DNA of 64,000 nucleotides, from assembly GCA_041651535.1 (NCBI GenBank), contig JBAZIZ010000002.1, positions 82,059-146,058 of the forward strand. The letters run 5' to 3'. This document shows, piece after piece, positions 2,558 to 62,342 of the stretch (the stretch's first letter is position 1; each line of letters begins with the position of its first letter). The DNA comes from Patescibacteria group bacterium (GTDB taxonomy: Bacteria > Patescibacteriota > Patescibacteriia > Magasanikbacterales > UBA922). The position numbers were made by a program, and so were the translations under genes. Under the pieces are notes generated by a model that was given only the letters and a program-made list of their open reading frames with translations, made no database searches and was not told the DNA's origin.

Positions 2558-4279
2558 ATGACAACATTTAGAGAACTTGGCTTAAATTCAGATTTGATAA
2601 AAAGCCTTGAAGATTTAGGTTTTAGCGAACCTACTCCTATTCAGGAAAAAACAATTCCTTTTATTTTAAATTCAAAAAAGGATTTAATCGCTTTAGCTCA
2701 GACTGGTACTGGTAAAACCGCGGCTTTTGGTTTACCTATTTTAAATCAAATTGACAAAAATAATCGTAATCTACAAGCTATTATTCTTTGTCCAACTAGA
2801 GAACTTTGTTTACAAATTACTCAGGATTTAAAAAAAATGGCTAAATATTCCAAAGAAAATATTATTGCTATTTATGGTGGGTCTAGTATTGAACTGCAAA
2901 TTAGAGCAGTGAAAAATCGAGCTAATATTATAGTTGGTACTCCTGGTCGTGTTCATGATCTGATTCGACGACGTATTTTAAATTTACAAACAATAAAATT
3001 TTTAGTTTTAGACGAAGCTGACGAAATGCTTGATATGGGTTTCAAAGATGATTTAGACGCTATTTTAGATGAAACACCTGAAACTAGACAAACACTGCTT
3101 TTTTCAGCCACAATCAGTAAAAGTGTCCGTTTGATTGCTAAAAATTACATGCAAAACGCTGAGGAAATTAGTATTGGAAAAAATAATATCGGGGCAGACA
3201 AAGTTAGTCATGAATATTATGTGGTTGATGCTAATAAACGTTTTGAAGCTTTAAAAAGAATTTTAGATTCTTTACCAGGAGTTTATGGCATTTTATTTTG
3301 TCGTACTAGAAATGAAACTCAAGAAATTGCGGCAAAATTAAAACAAGCTCATTATGACACTGAGGCTCTTCATGGCGATGTTTCACAGTCGATGCGCAGT
3401 AAAATTATGGCTGATTTTAAAAATAAAAAAAGAGGTTTGCTGGTAGCTACTGATGTTGCAGCTCGTGGTATAGATATTTCTGATTTATCTCACGTGATAA
3501 ATTATAATTTGCCTGATAGTGACGAATCTTACACTCATAGAAGTGGTCGTACAGGAAGAGCGCAAAAAACAGGAATTGCTATTTCCATTGTGAGTCCAAG
3601 AGAAGTTCGCCGTATTAAAGATATTGAATATATAATAAATAAAGAAATTGAATATAAAAAAATTCCAGATGGAAAAGAAATTTGTCAAATACAAATCAAA
3701 AATTTTATTGAGGAAATTGAAAAATCAAATATTAAAGATTTTACTGACGAAGAATTTTTTTCTGAAATTAATAAAAATTTAAAAAAAACAAAAAAAGAAG
3801 ATTTGATCAGACATCTTATTTCTTATCGTTTTGGTCATTTGCTCAATTATTATAAAGATTCTTACAACTTAAATGTTCGGGTACCTGATGTTCGAAGCAA
3901 AAAAGATGGTCCATTAAAAGAAGGTGTTGATTTAAAAATAAATCTAGGAAAAGCACATGGTTTTGATATTCAAGCTTTATTTACTATAATCAACTCAAAT
4001 AAAAATTTAAATGGCATGGAAATTGGAAAAATTTCTCTTATGCCTGAATTTTCTTTTTTTGCTGTTGAAAAAGAACAAGCTGCAGAAGTAATTCAAACTC
4101 TTAACGGTCAAAAATTCCGTAATCATGAAATAGAAATAGAAACTGATGTTGAAATAAAAGATAATTCAAAAACCTATAAAAAAAGATCTGAGCATAACAA
4201 TTATAACAAAAATCATAGATCAAGAAATAGATCTTTTAACAGAAGAAGATTTGATTCACACCGAAGAAAAAGATATTAA
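2558..4279 (+). CDS. deaD: DEAD-box ATP-dependent RNA helicase with C-terminal DbpA-type RNA-binding domain and basic R/S-rich tail
   Basis: Motif I AQTGTGKT, Ia PTRELCLQI, II VLDEADEML, III SAT, VI HRSGRTGRAQKTG; C-terminal 'GMEIGKISLMPEFSFFAVEKEQAAEVIQTLNGQKFRNHEIEIE' RRM-like; tail RSRNRSFNRRRFDSHRRKRY. Confidence 0.9.
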   Translation: MTTFRELGLNSDLIKSLEDLGFSEPTPIQEKTIPFILNSKKDLIALAQTGTGKTAAFGLPILNQIDKNNRNLQAIILCPTRELCLQITQDLKKMAKYSKENIIAIYGGSSIELQIRAVKNRANIIVGTPGRVHDLIRRRILNLQTIKFLVLDEADEMLDMGFKDDLDAILDETPETRQTLLFSATISKSVRLIAKNYMQNAEEISIGKNNIGADKVSHEYYVVDANKRFEALKRILDSLPGVYGILFCRTRNETQEIAAKLKQAHYDTEALHGDVSQSMRSKIMADFKNKKRGLLVATDVAARGIDISDLSHVINYNLPDSDESYTHRSGRTGRAQKTGIAISIVSPREVRRIKDIEYIINKEIEYKKIPDGKEICQIQIKNFIEEIEKSNIKDFTDEEFFSEINKNLKKTKKEDLIRHLISYRFGHLLNYYKDSYNLNVRVPDVRSKKDGPLKEGVDLKINLGKAHGFDIQALFTIINSNKNLNGMEIGKISLMPEFSFFAVEKEQAAEVIQTLNGQKFRNHEIEIETDVEIKDNSKTYKKRSEHNNYNKNHRSRNRSFNRRRFDSHRRKRY

Positions 4280-4289
4280 TTATTCTAAA

Positions 4290-4314
4290 ACATCGCTTTA
4301 AGCGATGTTTTTTG
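4290..4314 (+). terminator. Rho-independent terminator (ACATCGC-ttta-GCGATGT + T6)
   Basis: Perfect 7-bp stem and U-tract 10 nt after the helicase stop. Confidence 0.6.
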
Positions 4315-4333
4315 TTAAAATATTTTTTTATTT

Positions 4334-7300
4334 TTATTTATTTTTTTCTATTGCGATATCTTTACTAATAGCTGATTCGTCATTTTCTGCAATATTTATA
4401 TTTTCTAATTTTCTTTCTTTAAACCCTTCTTTTTCAACTGTCAGATAATAATTATTTTTTCCAGCTAAAAATGAATAACGTCCTTTATTGTCTGTAACTT
4501 GAGTGCTGATAAGTTTATTAAATTTACTATCATAAAGTCTGATAATAGCTTTAGCCAAAGGTTTTTTTGTATCTTTATCAAAAATAATACCATAATTTTT
4601 GAATTTTTTCTGACTAGAAAATTTCTTATACAAAATATAAAATAAAATTTGTACTGCTAATAAAATTCCGACATATAAATTTGGTTTTACCACCATAGCT
4701 AAAATACCAACTACCAAAGAAACGCTAATAATCAGATGTCTAATATCAGTCAACAAATTGCTAATGATAATACGACGTGGAGTTTTATTTGCACCGACAG
4801 GATCAATCGGAATATTTTGAATAATTGCTGAAGTATTTTCATCAATATGAATTGGGGCTCCATGATAAATATTTTGGAAACTTGTGTCTTCACTAATATC
4901 TTGTAAAATTTTTGTTGGATAAATAAAATTCGCAGTTGCAACCACAATTCGGTAAATTCCTGGTTCAGCAAAAAATTTATAACGACCTTTACTATCAGTA
5001 ACTGCTGTTTGTACGATACGATCAGTCTTATCATCAACAAGTCTAACTGTAATTAAATCTACTGGCATTTTATTTAAAGAATTGTAAACTATTCCCCACT
5101 CTTTTCTTTTTTTCTTACTAAATAAAGTAAAAGGCAATAAAACTAAAGCTCGCAGATAACTAAGCAAACTTAAAAAAGATAAAGCTGGAACAGCTAAAGC
5201 TAAAGTTGTCGCAATAGCCGCTGGCGCCACTACTCTTTCTACTGTTTTTTCAATTTTTGGATCATTAAAAGAATCAATTACATTACCCGCAGTTTGTGTT
5301 CCGACATCAGCAAGATATCCAGCCTTTTCCGCTACTGTAATTTCTGGATCAAGTAAATTAATTTTTTTAATTAAATTAAAATTACGATTAACAATGAAAT
5401 TATCAACAGTAAAACCGCTAGTTTCACTGATTAAATAACCATCTTTTTTTACAGTAAGTTTATAAGCACCGTTTGGAACTGTAAAACCATAAAAACCATT
5501 TTCATCAGTTTCTACAGTTTGAATCAATTTGTATTTATTTTCTCCAGATAATTGTTGCAAAGTTACTACTGCTCCATCTATATTTTCAAAATCGTTATCA
5601 ATTTGACTGACAATTTTTCCATAAGGCAAAACAAAAACTGAAAAAGGTAAAATTTCTTCGCCGTCTGTGCCATGTTCTATTTTTATTAGTGCGCTATATG
5701 AACTGACTGCAGTTGGTGCTAATAAATCAGCAATATACATTTGACTACCTTGATCAAAATATAAATCATAGCTAGTATCTTTGAAATAAAGTTTAGCTGA
5801 TTTTATAGTTGCAGGAATTTTTGTAGTATTAACTGAAATACCTAGAGAAGAACCAGCTAAAACACTAACACTATTATAAGAATTTAAACGAGCATTTATA
5901 GTACGATTTGCTAAATAAACTTTTACATCACTAATATCTAAAACAGCTCCAACTGGTAAATGATATTCGCTATTATCCAAAGCATTTTCACAATCATTAT
6001 CATTTAAATCAACAAGTCCATCGCCATCATTATCAATTCCATCCTGACATTGAACTAAAATTATTGTATTATTTTCAAAAATAGTATTAGTGTCTGTTTC
6101 AGTTATAATTTTATCTTCACAAGTATTATCACTTAAAACATATTCGTTATTATCAGTTGGATCCACACAACCATTATCACTTAAATCAATAAATCCATCA
6201 CCATCATTATCAATTCCATCATTACACTGTGTTTCACAATTTCCACAAGTTCCTGGGTTTTCTTCACCACTATTATTTACTTCTGAATTATCATCATAAT
6301 TTTGACAACCTAAATCATTTAAATCAATAAGTCCATCACCATCATTATCAATTCCGTCATTACAAGCAGCTAAATATTCATTATTATCCACTGAATCATA
6401 AACTCCATTTAAATAACAACCAGAATCTTGATTATCAATTCGGCCATCACCATCATTATCAATTCCATCAGCACAATCTTTTATTTCAGCACAAGTTTCT
6501 GGATTACAAACATTATCATCGTATTCACTATTGTCAGTTGAATCATAAACTCCTGCTTCATTTTGACAGCCTGGATCCAGTTCATCAATAAAATTATCAC
6601 CATCATTATCTTGATTATCTGCACAATCTGTAATTGTTTCATCACCACCACTACAACCTAAATCAGCACAAGATAAATCATTAAAATAATAACTAACAAA
6701 TTTATTATTACCGGCTTTATCAGAAACAGAAACAGTCCAATCAACTTTTCTTTCTGAAACAAAATCAGTATCTTGATTAACTGTTATTGAATACAAATTA
6801 TCATTTATTTTTTCTGAAATTACATTGACTGAACCTGACCAACCAATTTGACTAACAGATACTTCTAAAGTATTTACATCAACTCCTGAACCGCCACTAT
6901 CAGAAATTTGAAAAGTAATTGGATCAGAAACTTTATGATTTGGTTTTTGATTGGCTGGATTAACATTTATTATTTGTGGTGGAGTTGATTCGCAAAAACC
7001 AGATTTTACTGTATAAGAGGCGCCACTAACTGAATTTAAAATATTTTCACTATTAACTGCATCAGCAATTTTTGAAGTAATAATTTCTGAAGAATTAAAG
7101 CGAATTGTCAATTCTTTTGTTTCTAATAAACTTGCACTTCTGACTGTAATTCTAGCAAAACGTAAATTTGAACCACTTTTATTTCCACCATAACCCACTA
7201 AACCAATAACTTTATTTCCAGAAACCACAGGGCTCGGTAAAATATCTGGTGAACTATAAGTATTAAAAAGTCCACCACCGCTGATAGAAATTGATTCACC

Positions 7301-59326: not shown

Positions 59327-60037
59327 TTATAATCCAACTGAATTAACTCCGTATTCTGCTTGTCCTTGCGTAAAACCCTCATATAATAGTTGGCCTATTA
59401 AACCACCACGTGAAAATGAAGAATAATCCAAATATTGTTCGGCACTTTTAGCTGCCTGTTCATTCCAATCAGCACCAGAATTATCTGTTCCATAAACTGC
59501 ATCAACATGTGAAAATTTTTCGTATTCCAATTGTTTAATCAATCCCTCACGAGAAAAAGCAGAATAATCCAAATAAGCTTTTGCACTTCTGATAGCATTT
59601 TTTTGACTAACTGTTTCGGTTGATACTGGTATAATATCTTGTTTATCTACTTCTTCGGTCTGAGTTTGTGTTGGTAAAGATACTGGTGTAGTTTCTGATG
59701 CTGTTTGAATTTCATCTTCTTTTACAGGAGCGACTGTTATATTACCACTCTCTTCTACTATCATAGGAATATTTTCTTCTTTTTCTTCTACAATTTCTGT
59801 ATTTTGTGTATTCTCTACTACAACATGATTTTCTGTCTGATTATCAGTATCCTCAGGTGTTTCAGTTGTAATTCCAAATAGAACAAAAGAAACAATAATT
59901 GAAATACCAAAAATTTTTCCTATTCTTTTCCTAGTTATCTCACCTTTTAAAAATTTAGAAAAAGACGATGGTTTAATAAGCCCGATTATCAAACAGACGA
60001 AAGAACCTAAAAATATTAGCAAAAATAAATTTTCCAT
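59327..60037 (-). CDS. Membrane-anchored protein with two C-terminal Ltp-family (host cell surface-exposed lipoprotein, PF07553-like) domains
   Basis: N-terminal TM; tandem 'AKAYLDYSAFSREGLIKQLEYEKFSHVDAVYGT' and 'AEQYLDYSSFSRGGLIGQLLYEGFTQGQAEYGVN' match the Ltp 'A..YL....FSR.GLI.QL...GF....A.YAV' signature. Confidence 0.65.
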   Translation of the reverse strand: MENLFLLIFLGSFVCLIIGLIKPSSFSKFLKGEITRKRIGKIFGISIIVSFVLFGITTETPEDTDNQTENHVVVENTQNTEIVEEKEENIPMIVEESGNITVAPVKEDEIQTASETTPVSLPTQTQTEEVDKQDIIPVSTETVSQKNAIRSAKAYLDYSAFSREGLIKQLEYEKFSHVDAVYGTDNSGADWNEQAAKSAEQYLDYSSFSRGGLIGQLLYEGFTQGQAEYGVNSVGL

Positions 60038-60082
60038 ATTATGTTATACTTAAATAAATAAATCCACTGCACCTTTGTATTT

Positions 60083-60198
60083 AAAAACACAAAAGGCTCT
60101 CCATGCAATGGTGATCTCTTACGAGACCCAGTAACCTTTCGGTTAAAGACTGGATAAACAATACCAAAGATGAGAGAGCCATCTCTATGTTTATCCAG
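60083..60198 (-). ncRNA. Candidate structured leader/sRNA with pseudoknot-like interleaved stems and terminal U-tract (attenuator or riboswitch-like) upstream of the Ltp gene
   Basis: GC-rich island; GGCTCTC(60095)/GAGAGCC(60174) and CTGGATAAACA(60150)/TGTTTATCCAG(60188) are interleaved; nested CCAGT-AACC-tttc-GGTT-ACTGG; on the minus strand the closing helix is followed by UUUUGUGUUUUU. Confidence 0.3.
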
Positions 60199-60441
60199 TT
60201 TTAGACCATGCCCACAAAGCGAGTTTAGGTCTTTAAATTGTTGCTTATATTCTAGCAAAATATTTTTTAAAAAGCAAGGTAAAAAACAAAAAAACACCTG
60301 TAAAAAAAGTATTTTATTTATTATGGACAAATTATAATTATTATATTGACAATAAAAATTATATTGTGTATAGTTTATATACAAACGGCTTCGGCCTCCG
60401 AGACCCTGTTTTCCTCTTATGGATCACAGGGATCGTTTTTT

Positions 60442-60726
60442 TTATAAAAAGTCTTTTATCTTTTTTCTAACTTCATTAAATTCTTCTTTTGAAATTGTTC
60501 TTACTTTTCTTAATAATCTCTTAGAACTGATAAGTCTTAATTGGGATAAAATTAAATATGACGTTTCATTTTTATATTTTACAGGAAAATAATATTTCTT
60601 ATTATTAGTTTTATCTTGACTGGTCATCGGAATAATCCACATTATTTCCAGATTAAATTGTTTTATTATAAGAACAGGTCTTTCAAAAGTTTCGTTTTTC
60701 CCATTTTGTTCAAAGCCAATATTCAT
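60442..60726 (-). CDS. MazF/PemK-family endoribonuclease toxin (N-terminally short)
   Basis: 'GFEQNGKNETFERPVLIIKQ' aligns to the MazF 'VGSEQGGVRPVLVIQ' segment; 'ILSQLRLISSKRL' = MazF 'LxQxRTIxxxRL'; C-terminal 'ISKEEFNEVRKKIKDFL'. Confidence 0.6.
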   Translation of the reverse strand: MNIGFEQNGKNETFERPVLIIKQFNLEIMWIIPMTSQDKTNNKKYYFPVKYKNETSYLILSQLRLISSKRLLRKVRTISKEEFNEVRKKIKDFL

Positions 60727-61024
60727 CCCTATACTAGCTCACCAATTTTCTCGTACTTTAAAAAAAATATTTTGTTTTGCTAAGTGTATTCTTATTTTTA
60801 ATTTTGTCCATTCTATAAAATTTTTTATTTTCCCCTCCATATTTTAAAGTTATTTTAATAATATATATTTTATCAAAAAATAATACAAAAACAAAAAATT
60901 TTATTTTACAAAACCATTTTTAAATGTAACCCAATTGTCTGAAACTTTTATTTCAGAGCAAGAAAAAAACCTTTATTTAAAAATAAAAATATGTTAAAAT
61001 AAACACAAAATATAATAAGTAAAT

Positions 61025-61975
61025 ATGATTCTTTCAATAGCTTTATTAATTTTATCTTTGCTAACTGTAATAAAAAGTGCTGATTACGCAATTCATTATT
61101 CAGGAAAAATTGCCAGAAGTTTAAATCTTTCTAAATATATAGTTGGTTTTTTAATTGTGGCCGTAATTTCAATTTTACCTGAAACTTTAGTATCAGTAAA
61201 TTCAGCTTTAAAAGGTGTACCTGCTTTTGGTTTAGGTACACTTTATGGATCAAATATTGCTGATTTAACATTAGTTTTTGCTTTAGTGGTTTTATTATCA
61301 AGTAGAAACCTAAAAATTGAAAGTAAAATAATAAAAAATCGTTTTTTTTATATAGGACTTGTAGCTATACCAATTTTATTAGGTTTGAATGGACATTATT
61401 CACGTCTAGAAGGAATTATTTTAATAATATCTGGCCTGAGTTTTTATTTTTATATTTTAAACAAAAATCATTGTTCTCCAAAAGATATTAAAGAAAAAAT
61501 CAATTTATCTGATTTAACATTATTGATTATTAGCATGATTGGTTTGATTTTTGGATCACATTTTACTGTAAAATATGGGATTACTTTTGCAAATAGTTTA
61601 AAAATTAATCCAGTTTTAATCGGTATGTTTGTTGTGGGGGTTGGAACAACCTTACCTGAATTATTTTTTTCTGTCAGAGCCGCAAAAAATCACAATGATG
61701 ATTTGGCTTTAGGAGATATTTTAGGGACTGTTATGGCTGATGCTACCATAGTTGTTGGAATTATAGCTGTTATTATACCTTTTGCTTTTAATCCAAAAAT
61801 AATTTATATAACTGGTACATTTATGTTTTTGGCAATAAATTTGCTTTTTCATTTTATAAAAACTGAAAAACTTTTAACAAAAAAAGAAGCAGTTTTGCTA
61901 TTATTTTTTTATTTTATTTTTGTCTTCACTGAATTAGCCATAAACGATCAACGTTTTATAGAATTATTTAAATAA
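61025..61975 (+). CDS. Ca2+/Na+ antiporter (CaCA family, YrbG-like)
   Basis: 10 TM; duplicated alpha-repeat motifs 'GTLYGSNIADLTLVFALVVL' and 'LGDILGTVMADATIVVGIIAVI'. Confidence 0.6.
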   Translation: MILSIALLILSLLTVIKSADYAIHYSGKIARSLNLSKYIVGFLIVAVISILPETLVSVNSALKGVPAFGLGTLYGSNIADLTLVFALVVLLSSRNLKIESKIIKNRFFYIGLVAIPILLGLNGHYSRLEGIILIISGLSFYFYILNKNHCSPKDIKEKINLSDLTLLIISMIGLIFGSHFTVKYGITFANSLKINPVLIGMFVVGVGTTLPELFFSVRAAKNHNDDLALGDILGTVMADATIVVGIIAVIIPFAFNPKIIYITGTFMFLAINLLFHFIKTEKLLTKKEAVLLLFFYFIFVFTELAINDQRFIELFK

Positions 61976-62002: not shown

Positions 62003-62003
62003 G

Positions 62004-62075
62004 TGCTCCCGCCAGGAATCGAACCTGGATTTTTGGTTCCGCAAACCAATGTCCTATCCGTTGAACGACAGGAGC
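62004..62075 (-). tRNA. tRNA with anticodon GCG as read (would decode CGY = Arg); needs tRNAscan confirmation
   Basis: Minus-strand GCTCCTG-TC-GTTC-AACGGATA-GGAC-A-TTGGT-TTGCGGA-ACCAA-AAAT-CCAGG-TTCGATT-CCTGG-CGGGAGC-A: full cloverleaf with TTCGATT T-loop; anticodon loop U32-U33-G34-C35-G36-G37-A38. Confidence 0.65.
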
Positions 62076-62078
62076 TTT

Positions 62079-62342
62079 TTAAATTATCATTTTTATTTTT
62101 CCATCATTAATCATTTTTTGTAAATAATCTTTTCTTTTTAGTTTTTTAATTTTTCTCTCAATTTTTCTAGCCACTTCTAAATTATTATATTCTTGAACTA
62201 ACACTAATTCAATATTTTTCATGTTTCTAGTTGTTTGAGTATGGCCATTTTTATGTTGTTTCAATCTCCTATCTATATTTGATGTGCTTCCAACATAAAA
62301 TCTGTTATCATTACTTTTTAATATATATACATATCCCCCCAT
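62079..62342 (-). CDS. GIY-YIG nuclease superfamily protein (YhbQ-like, 87 aa)
   Basis: 'GYVYILKSNDNRFYVGSTSNIDRRLKQHKNG...' GIY-(10)-YVG + R + 'VLVQEY...E..IK' motifs; starts 21 nt after the tRNA-fragment duplicate and ends 3 nt before the intact tRNA. Confidence 0.75.
   Translation of the reverse strand: MGGYVYILKSNDNRFYVGSTSNIDRRLKQHKNGHTQTTRNMKNIELVLVQEYNNLEVARKIERKIKKLKRKDYLQKMINDGKIKMII

Follow-up and report, generated by a model that had tools for sequence, protein, structure and literature searches.

A LOOT RNA ahead of an ltp lipoprotein gene on a patescibacterial chromosome, with a conserved loop-tail helix and a terminator-like 3' end

The analysed stretch of DNA (the window, 64,000 nt in length) carries, in order, genes for ParA, ParB and RelA/SpoT, a tRNA-Arg, genes for a GIY-YIG protein, a Na/Ca exchanger and a PemK-like toxin, a structured RNA element, the gene ltp, and genes for an ECF sigma factor, ScpB and RecG; the contig belongs to an ENA metagenome assembly, and the context of the locus is chromosomal. 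The stretch that was initially flagged between the toxin gene and ltp (60083-60198) is a G+C island (0.36-0.41 G+C, surroundings ~0.2-0.3), whose folding relative to shuffles is strongest on the minus strand (z = -5.7; plus strand z = -3.4). The original prediction had proposed a structured RNA there, and a non-coding RNA on the minus strand is indeed supported by this fold, by an Rfam match and by covariation among homologues. The flagged coordinates were nevertheless too narrow, as they omit hairpin 1 (60204-60231), the candidate promoter and leader (to ~60277) and a downstream hairpin (to 60064). The features of the locus are, in the direction of transcription:

60249-60277, minus strand: candidate promoter, with -35 TTGCTT (60277-60272), a 17-nt spacer ending in TG and -10 TAGAAT (60254-60249)
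near 60242, minus strand: predicted transcription start, read from the candidate promoter
60232-60241, minus strand: A-rich 5' leader ACAAUUUAAA, before hairpin 1
60113-60231, minus strand: LOOT core of four hairpins as modelled in RF03000 (cmscan)
60204-60231, minus strand: hairpin 1, with internal loop CCUAAAC/GCAUGG (Rfam alignment)
60188-60198, minus strand: 5' strand of the outer stem of hairpin 2 (helix B'), TGTTTATCCAG, pairing with 60150-60160
60161-60187, minus strand: apical region L of hairpin 2, forming the inner hairpin AGAGAUGG/UCAUCUUU or pairing with the 3' tail
60150-60160, minus strand: 3' strand of the outer stem of hairpin 2 (helix B), CTGGATAAACA (Rfam alignment, relatives and shuffles)
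60129-60148, minus strand: hairpin 3 with its GAAA tetraloop, the nested hairpin of the original prediction (Rfam alignment)
60113-60128, minus strand: hairpin 4, GATCTCTTACGAGACC, with a GUAA (GNRA) tetraloop (Rfam alignment and family covariation)
60095-60112, minus strand: 3' tail T, ACCAUUGCAUGGAGAGCC, 18 nt beyond the Rfam model, pairing with L
60083-60094, minus strand: U-run UUUUGUGUUUUU, directly after the loop-tail helix (family-wide position)
60064-60082, minus strand: downstream segment pairing back onto the tail (minimum-free-energy fold)
59327-60037, minus strand: ltp, encoding an Ltp-type surface lipoprotein with two Ltp repeats (Pfam PF07553, E = 1.5e-26)

The covariance-model scan proposed with the original prediction identified the element. 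Using cmscan, LOOT RNA (RF03000) matched 60113-60231 on the minus strand with 70.9 bits (gathering score 46.4, E = 2.6e-11), over the full length of the model (positions 1-121 of 121). This was the sole non-tRNA Rfam match in the whole window, and within 59900-61100 no Rfam family other than LOOT was found even at E <= 5; C4 and related models likewise went unmatched, both across the window with the gathering threshold applied and across 59900-61100 with E <= 5. It is thus near certain that the element is a LOOT RNA, a catalogued family without assigned function, which Rfam types as sRNA. LOOT was reportedly first described in the survey of 224 motifs by Weinberg et al. in 2017. The main text of that survey (PMC5737381) never names LOOT, and RF03000 was taken by Rfam from Weinberg's ZWD alignment collection (PMC7779021). 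The CaCoFold paper gives LOOT ~43 base pairs in six helices, which is the model lacking the loop-tail helix described below. In our literature search, which covered the discovery survey by its main text, mentions of LOOT came only from the Rfam papers and the CaCoFold paper, and these report no function.

The copy in the window is an ordinary member of the family, with which it shares the four hairpins, the CCUAAAC/GCAUGG loop and the GAAA and GNRA tetraloops. Its hairpin 1 internal loop reads GACCUAAAC...GCAUGGUC followed by a UAAAA linker (60231-60199), matching the CCUAAaC...GCAUGG and A-rich linker of LOOT; the long hairpin 2, variable but paired in the family, has 11 bp here; and the tetraloops are found as GAAA at 60140-60137 (hairpin 3) and GUAA at 60122-60119 (hairpin 4). 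Its relatives likewise come from uncultivated-bacterium and metagenome sources, and nothing in the window copy conflicts with membership. Compared with the model, its inner helix is longer, a subtype common to Magasanikbacteria-type loci, and its hairpin 3 carries two mismatches, i.e. two non-standard pairs at the base (marked 'vv' in the Rfam alignment), while 8 of 8 pairs of this hairpin covary across the family. In terms of the helices originally proposed, helix B corresponds to the outer stem of hairpin 2 and the nested hairpin to hairpin 3, whereas helix A, formed by the apical loop and the tail, is absent from the Rfam model. What is new with respect to RF03000 is this 3' extension pairing with the apical loop and followed by a U-run, its rivalry with the hairpin 2 inner helix, and the setting of the family among mobile elements. 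With the extension, we propose a length of ~160 nt for the LOOT RNA at this locus.

Homologues were searched with a pattern of invariant LOOT nucleotides, which recovered at least 118 loci in species-representative genomes and at least 120 in metagenomes, plus one viral contig. Since the pattern demanded the conserved nucleotides, their invariance in this set is by construction; the pattern placed no constraint on the tail, on stem sequences or on gene context. Family frequencies given here are sample estimates, from loci among the matches listed. Eight pattern-found loci were confirmed by Rfam with 80-95 bits. On viral contigs, a looser pattern gave chance matches only and a stricter one returned a single true LOOT (L124). 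Among the matches listed, the named records are overwhelmingly metagenome-assembled genomes (MAGs) of Patescibacteria (CPR), including Saccharibacteria, Levy-, Gottesman-, Magasanik- and Roizmanbacteria, Parcubacteria/Paceibacterota and others; outside the CPR, these matches comprise one TM6 and a few MAGs labelled Gammaproteobacteria. The alignments referred to below are a structure-blind MAFFT alignment of 76 copies and an alignment of the six closest relatives of the window copy among the matches listed.

Both helices of the original prediction were recovered from the sequence. On the forward strand, GGCTCTC (60095-60101) complements GAGAGCC (60174-60180), forming helix A, and CTGGATAAACA (60150-60160) complements TGTTTATCCAG (60188-60198) over 11 bp, forming helix B, a complementarity matched in none of 100 shuffles of the window. 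The two are interleaved in the order A..B..A'..B', as had been stated, and the nested hairpin CAGTAACC-TTTC-GGTTAAAG occupies 60129-60148, at 2 nt from the helix B arm (60150-60160), which the longer ACTGG arm of this hairpin overlaps. On the RNA, the L strand pairing with the tail is GGCUCUC.CAU (60180-60174 and 60172-60170) and the tail contributes GAGAGCC (60101-60095) and AUG (60104-60102), so that GGCUCUC:GAGAGCC is followed by a bulged U and then by CAU:AUG.

The comparative alignment suggested with the original prediction revealed that these pairings are conserved, with covariation of both helices in homologues. In the six closest relatives among the matches listed, helix A is 95% paired with 4 of 10 pairs compensated, and helix B is 100% paired with 5 of 11 pairs changed on both sides. 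At the scale of the family, L and its own 28-nt tail pair with a mean of -26.6 kcal/mol over 227 non-redundant copies, compared with -15.7 for the tails of other loci and -11.9 for shuffled tails (p ~1e-101). On the 76-copy alignment, RNAalifold picked the loop-tail helix unprompted. Its 9-pair core is 94.9% paired there and 7 of the pairs are changed on both sides (for example UA 37/CG 31 at one pair, CG 29/AU 15/GC 15/UG 10 at another), while a 7-pair extension joining the A-run of the loop with the U-run is 82% paired. The covariation score of the helix in this alignment reaches 0.634, against 0.224 for shuffled alignments (0 of 500 as high) and 0.09-0.16 when the partners are slid, and over ~200 homologues its covariation is as strong as that of the accepted LOOT helices. 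Furthermore, many pairs of the family are G-U on the LOOT strand only, leaving A-C mismatches on the opposite strand, which indicates an RNA structure rather than duplex DNA. The two interleaved helices are real and conserved.

The original prediction had left the choice between a pseudoknot and mutually exclusive structures, and the evidence points to both. Exclusivity does hold between the inner apical hairpin and the loop-tail helix; helices A and B share no strand. The inner apical hairpin, which is the inner helix of hairpin 2 in the Rfam model, is more stable than shuffles (mean z = -2.0 over 197 copies; z = -2.3 in the window), while tails alone have no self-structure (z = -0.2). As the nucleotides of this hairpin also serve the loop-tail helix, the family has two mutually exclusive structures, both conserved. 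On steric grounds, the full 16-19 bp loop-tail helix is also probably incompatible with an intact 11-bp outer stem. A third pairing is present in the minimum-free-energy fold of the window copy, where UGCAGUGG (60071-60064) pairs with CCAUUGCA (60111-60104); AAUACAAAGG (60081-60072) pairs with the U-run, as an alternative to the loop-tail helix. A compensated version of this downstream-segment pairing occurs in one close relative (L317), and the pairing is moderately enriched family-wide (own segments -10.1, cross-locus segments -8.4 kcal/mol, p = 1.5e-6; -13.7 in the window). The pairing of the tail with the downstream segment is an optional third structure.

Directly behind the loop-tail helix stands the U-run. 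It begins 12-15 nt past hairpin 4 in 87% of copies, and 91% of copies hold at least 6 U in 9 nt. In the window, the GAGAGCC strand of helix A abuts UUUUGUGUUUUU (60094-60083), which ends 45 nt short of the ltp ATG at 60037, as originally noted. A simple terminator scan returned no terminator on the minus strand here. Intrinsic terminators are normally short-looped. LOOT resembles Rho-independent terminators and attenuators in its G+C-rich helix abutting a U-run, in the A-run on its 5' strand and in its competing pairings, but differs in that the two strands of the helix lie ~70 nt apart, enclose hairpins 3 and 4 and are interleaved with hairpin 2, instead of forming a short-looped local hairpin. 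We know of no documented natural terminator type in which the stem is interrupted by ~70 nt and interleaved with another helix. Of the terminator/antiterminator-like geometry that had been proposed, the first half stands, a U-run behind a loop-tail helix being terminator-like; the second does not, as helix B shares no strand with helix A and is no classical antiterminator. Among the competing structures, one is situated past the U-run and hence cannot act as a classical antiterminator either. From this architecture, we infer that transcription would end at the U-run. The alignment of 76 copies bears on this reading in two ways. The Us are near-invariant even opposite a non-A loop base, with 33/76 and 27/76 unpaired cells in two columns, while the columns of the loop A-run show some covariation with part of the U-run, so that the Us may be kept for static pseudoknot pairing rather than for termination. 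In addition, U-run strength, loop-tail energy and the downstream hairpin do not differ according to whether a co-oriented gene follows closely; were the tail the 3' end of the RNA itself, it and the U-run should indeed be unchanged where no such gene is present.

At the other end of the element, the region 60249-60277 is a candidate promoter. It scores 8/12 to consensus, below the threshold of a simple scan, and TTGATT-17(TG)-TAGAAT/TAATAT/TAGGAT sequences stand at the same distance in the close relatives L342, L317, L311 and L216. Across the whole family no fixed upstream motif was found, only A-rich sequence, and the promoter position is seen only within the Ltp subfamily. The same holds for the leader, kept as ACAATTyAwA in the Ltp-linked subfamily and merely A-rich across the whole family. 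No promoter-like site was detected by scanning between LOOT and the ltp ATG, and ltp is therefore most likely transcribed through LOOT. Within the core, the internal loop of hairpin 1 (CCUAAAC/GCAUGG) is close to the 11-nt GAAA-tetraloop receptor motif, CCUAAG/UAUGG (PMC2615604), from which it differs by an extra A and by a C-G pair instead of a G-U pair; with a GAAA loop on hairpin 3 that is invariant, it is plausible that this loop docks into the receptor-like loop of hairpin 1.

Gene context was compared across the loci among the matches listed. The downstream neighbour is co-oriented with LOOT in 164 of 185 loci (89%), with a median gap of ~65 nt from the end of the model and ~40 nt past the U-run, a distance too short to accommodate a further promoter. 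On the upstream side, the neighbour is divergent in 113 of 179 loci, and LOOT thus usually heads a transcription unit. Which genes follow is highly variable: in these loci, 144 downstream proteins form 111 BLAST clusters, and 136 scanned proteins represent 57 Pfam families, of which Ltp is the largest with 5 members; the Ltp group includes the window. The others include DUF4352 and SHOCT proteins, DNA methyltransferases, small membrane proteins, and PD-(D/E)XK-type nucleases (Mrr_cat, NucS_C, NOV_C, DUF559 and YhcG). Of 174 loci among the matches listed whose downstream sequence was long enough, 43 (25%) lack any co-oriented ORF of 70 aa or more within 400 nt while showing the same loop-tail energy and U-run, which argues for LOOT as a self-contained unit and not a leader alone.

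A further relation between LOOT and the following gene concerns a subset of loci. In ~9-14% of those among the matches listed, a copy of the 5' strand of hairpin 2 stands directly before the start codon of the next gene, and the 3' strand of hairpin 2 pairs with the downstream region at <=-14 kcal/mol in 14% of loci, versus 2% of cross-locus controls; in this subset, the 3' strand could sequester the initiation region. In the window copy, the best duplex of this strand with the downstream 130 nt reaches -5.4 kcal/mol, which is background. The start-codon copy was consequently discarded as a general expression platform, being restricted to ~9-14% of loci and absent from the window. At one locus (L165), a partial second LOOT is fused to an ATG.

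The neighbourhood of LOOT in the matches listed is rich in genes of mobile elements. Large serine recombinases are found nearby, often upstream, in 42 loci and DUF5659 proteins in 22, and further neighbours comprise tyrosine integrases, rolling-circle Rep, SpoVG, large and small terminase subunits, ParB-methyltransferases and replication-initiator O-like proteins. The divergent ~250-aa proteins beside LOOT lack a PHROG annotation and are spread over many small families, and no universal protein partner was found. In the window, 101 mobile-element hallmark proteins from other LOOT loci had no homologue over the 64 kb, while Ltp, used as positive control, gave a match. The closest LOOT-Ltp modules among the matches listed (L311, L317 and L216) adjoin serine recombinase and Rep genes, so that the pair in the window looks like a module derived from a mobile element and now on the chromosome. 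Duplication of LOOT as an att site was also considered and rejected: repeats of LOOT segments are rare, the recurring ones lie within ~230 nt downstream besides a few isolated 13-nt matches, and no distant half-copies turned up. LOOT-like sites were not seen in arrays, which makes an integron-like platform unlikely.

Our leading interpretation, held tentatively and at a little below an even chance, is that LOOT constitutes an RNA gene, transcribed from a promoter of its own and closed by a long-range terminator-like 3' end, which would attenuate read-through into ltp. Under this reading, minus-strand transcription would start from the promoter near 60250-60277, and the RNA would fold into its four hairpins, with the GAAA loop of hairpin 3 probably docked in the receptor-like loop of hairpin 1. 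The 18-nt tail would then pair with the apical loop of hairpin 2, hairpins 3 and 4 lying between the two strands and the U-run directly behind, and this loop-tail helix would end most transcripts, releasing a compact LOOT RNA. The inner apical hairpin and, in the window, the tail-downstream hairpin would compete with the loop-tail helix and let a fraction of polymerases reach the promoterless ltp. LOOT may thereby be a mobile-element RNA gene of Patescibacteria that doubles as promoter, leader and attenuator for the accessory gene behind it. Against attenuation speaks an elaborate conserved tertiary architecture, which exceeds what a simple attenuator needs.

The same observations can be arranged around a stand-alone RNA acting in trans for a mobile element, in immunity or lysogeny as do c4 of P1/P7 and CI of P4, the loop-tail helix and U-run being its terminator and the downstream genes passengers. 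We consider this rather unlikely. In its favour, the Rfam type is sRNA, the ~25% of loci without a co-oriented gene retain tail and U-run, and many loci face a divergent operon with replication-initiator O-like, DUF5659 and serine recombinase genes, i.e. the position of the repressor gene in a temperate-phage switch. LOOT would share with c4 and CI the encoding by mobile elements at the head of an operon, and the match, in ~14% of loci, of the hairpin 2 3' strand to the region where translation of the following gene starts obeys a logic like that of c4 on icd (PMC8198154), the copying of a variable segment at this start recalling c4 and its a2/b2 targets (background partly from PMC8198154). 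However, LOOT has no sequence or model similarity to these RNAs, including the Rfam C4 family, is larger and more elaborately folded, and precedes accessory genes, not antirepressors; the window copy has no target match at the ltp start (-5.4 kcal/mol) and no recognisable phage backbone around it. A crude test, amounting to a weak negative, gave -53.3 kcal/mol for LOOT with the 5' region of its own divergent mRNA and -51.3 kcal/mol for cross-locus pairs (p = 0.16), and the 89% co-orientation with short gaps is unusual for free-standing sRNA genes. That co-orientation and proximity would suit, instead, a static, compact, pseudoknotted 5' leader protecting the mRNA 5' end and insulating the expression of its cargo, with the U-run kept for pairing with the A-run. 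The extreme diversity of the cargo fits such a generic expression module, tetraloops and a receptor-like loop are typical of rigid folds, and the A-run:U-run columns do show some covariation. We nevertheless hold it to be improbable, as the Us are near-invariant opposite non-A bases and unpaired in many cells of two columns (33/76 and 27/76), the inner apical hairpin that excludes the loop-tail helix is itself under selection, and LOOT is unchanged where the downstream gene is absent.

A regulatory leader of the riboswitch kind, as evoked in the original prediction, fares worse and appears very improbable. It would make the four-hairpin core a ligand-sensing aptamer and the loop-tail helix with its U-run the expression platform, in agreement with the joining of a conserved core to a conserved alternative pairing and U-run, with the 5' UTR-like position in most loci, and with the ~14% of loci that add a pairing that would sequester the ribosome-binding site. 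Yet the downstream genes share no pathway (111 clusters for 144 proteins, 57 Pfam families), a quarter of the copies keep their tail without a nearby gene to regulate, structural motifs (receptor-like loop and GNRA loops) account for most of the conserved nucleotides, with no obvious binding pocket, and no ligand candidate emerged. Finally, a signal lying not in an RNA but in the 122-aa ORF (60016-60384, minus strand) or in a DNA-level recombination site is scarcely credible. The ORF exists, serine or tyrosine recombinase genes adjoin LOOT in about a quarter of the sampled loci, and a few loci have partial LOOT copies nearby; but the ORF, which the original prediction already considered probably not real, is spurious, with no Pfam match and a frame broken by indels of 1-2 nt in close relatives. 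The covariation pattern also contradicts this reading, as helices are kept through G-U pairs whose opposite strand would carry A-C mismatches. GNRA loops and a covariance-model match over the full length likewise indicate RNA, and neither distant half-sites or arrays nor, in the window, a recombinase were found.

These results give an orphan RNA class a fuller anatomy, with a covarying loop-tail helix and U-run, mutually exclusive conserved structures and a probable tetraloop-receptor contact, and set it in front of the accessory-gene slot that phages and integrative elements carry in Patescibacteria. To our knowledge, almost no gene regulation has been studied by experiment in these bacteria. 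If the loop-tail helix truly terminates transcription, LOOT would provide a natural long-range, pseudoknot-type intrinsic terminator and also a portable promoter-leader module, by which defence or exclusion genes swapped into a mobile element, ltp for instance, could be expressed. A more speculative and clearly improbable extension would see in LOOT an RNA 'lysogeny gene' of temperate phages and integrative elements of Patescibacteria, occupying the repressor-gene position opposite the replication operon and next to the integrase, with a pseudoknot-type terminator, possibly responsive to phage or host factors, that meters superinfection-exclusion and defence cargo; were it true, the terminator would be of a new kind, and so would the RNA-based module controlling the cargo of mobile elements. 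The conserved 3' extension and the mobile-element cargo context make the function of LOOT approachable by experiment.

The strand of LOOT (Rfam RF03000) that opens its long hairpin, hairpin 2, recurs at downstream start codons in about 9–14% of the LOOT loci listed, against 0.5–2% in controls. In seven of these homologous loci (L148, L156, L158, L167, L177, L322 and L351), a 10–18 nt copy of this 5' strand follows an A-rich linker, lies 36–56 nt past the end of the LOOT model, and terminates at, or a few nucleotides from, the start codon. With this placement, the 3' strand of hairpin 2 could base-pair with the initiation region of the downstream gene. At locus L165, a second, partial LOOT (~4261–4349, minus strand) lies downstream of the full LOOT at 4435–4555 and comprises hairpin 1, the linker and the opening (5') strand of hairpin 2; 27 nt of it are an exact repeat, and the ATG of the next ORF is fused directly to it. 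Either a recombination scar or the RBS-sequestering design taken to an extreme could account for this partial copy.

Two genomic layouts recur around LOOT. In L204, L247, L338, L358, L179, L348 and L276, a serine recombinase gene of ~440 aa runs in the same direction as LOOT, which starts at a constant 36–38 nt past its stop codon; recombinase, LOOT and cargo (the downstream accessory gene) form a fixed arrangement in this one group of seven loci. Terminase genes precede the recombinase in L204, L247 and L358, the loci with visible neighbours. Often, as in L124, L145, L185, L201, L239, L273 and others, the first upstream gene lies on the opposite strand, 40–130 nt from LOOT, and encodes a fast-evolving protein of ~230–290 aa for which no Pfam or PHROG annotation was found. 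DUF5659 and a replication-initiator O-like gene usually come next, and the whole layout resembles a phage switch region.

In the window, three further features lie near LOOT and its downstream ltp gene:

60346–60443, plus strand: near-consensus promoter, hairpin pair and U8 run (fold z = −3.6)
60442–61020, minus strand: PemK/MazF-like ORF of just 94 aa, by Pfam match
62003–62342, minus strand: tRNA-Arg (GCG), with a small GIY-YIG/T5orf172 nuclease gene directly after it

The Pfam match of the PemK/MazF-like ORF begins at profile position 13, and no antitoxin-sized ORF was found upstream on the same strand; the toxin gene may be truncated or lack a partner. Convergent with its 3' end, a near-consensus promoter (TTGACA, 17 nt, TATAGT; 11/12), then a stable hairpin pair and the U8 run, delineate a candidate plus-strand RNA of ~60 nt, for which no Rfam match was found. 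The tRNA/nuclease pair, a pairing typical of mobile or homing elements, lies ~2 kb from the LOOT-Ltp pair.

Finally, several true LOOT loci (L154, L158, L169, L173, L183 and L191) came from MAGs of the species-representative genome collection (genome_contigs) labelled Gammaproteobacteria or Pseudomonadales. L158 is nearly identical to the Levybacteria locus L156, which points to mis-binning of CPR or mobile-element contigs more than to a wider host range.
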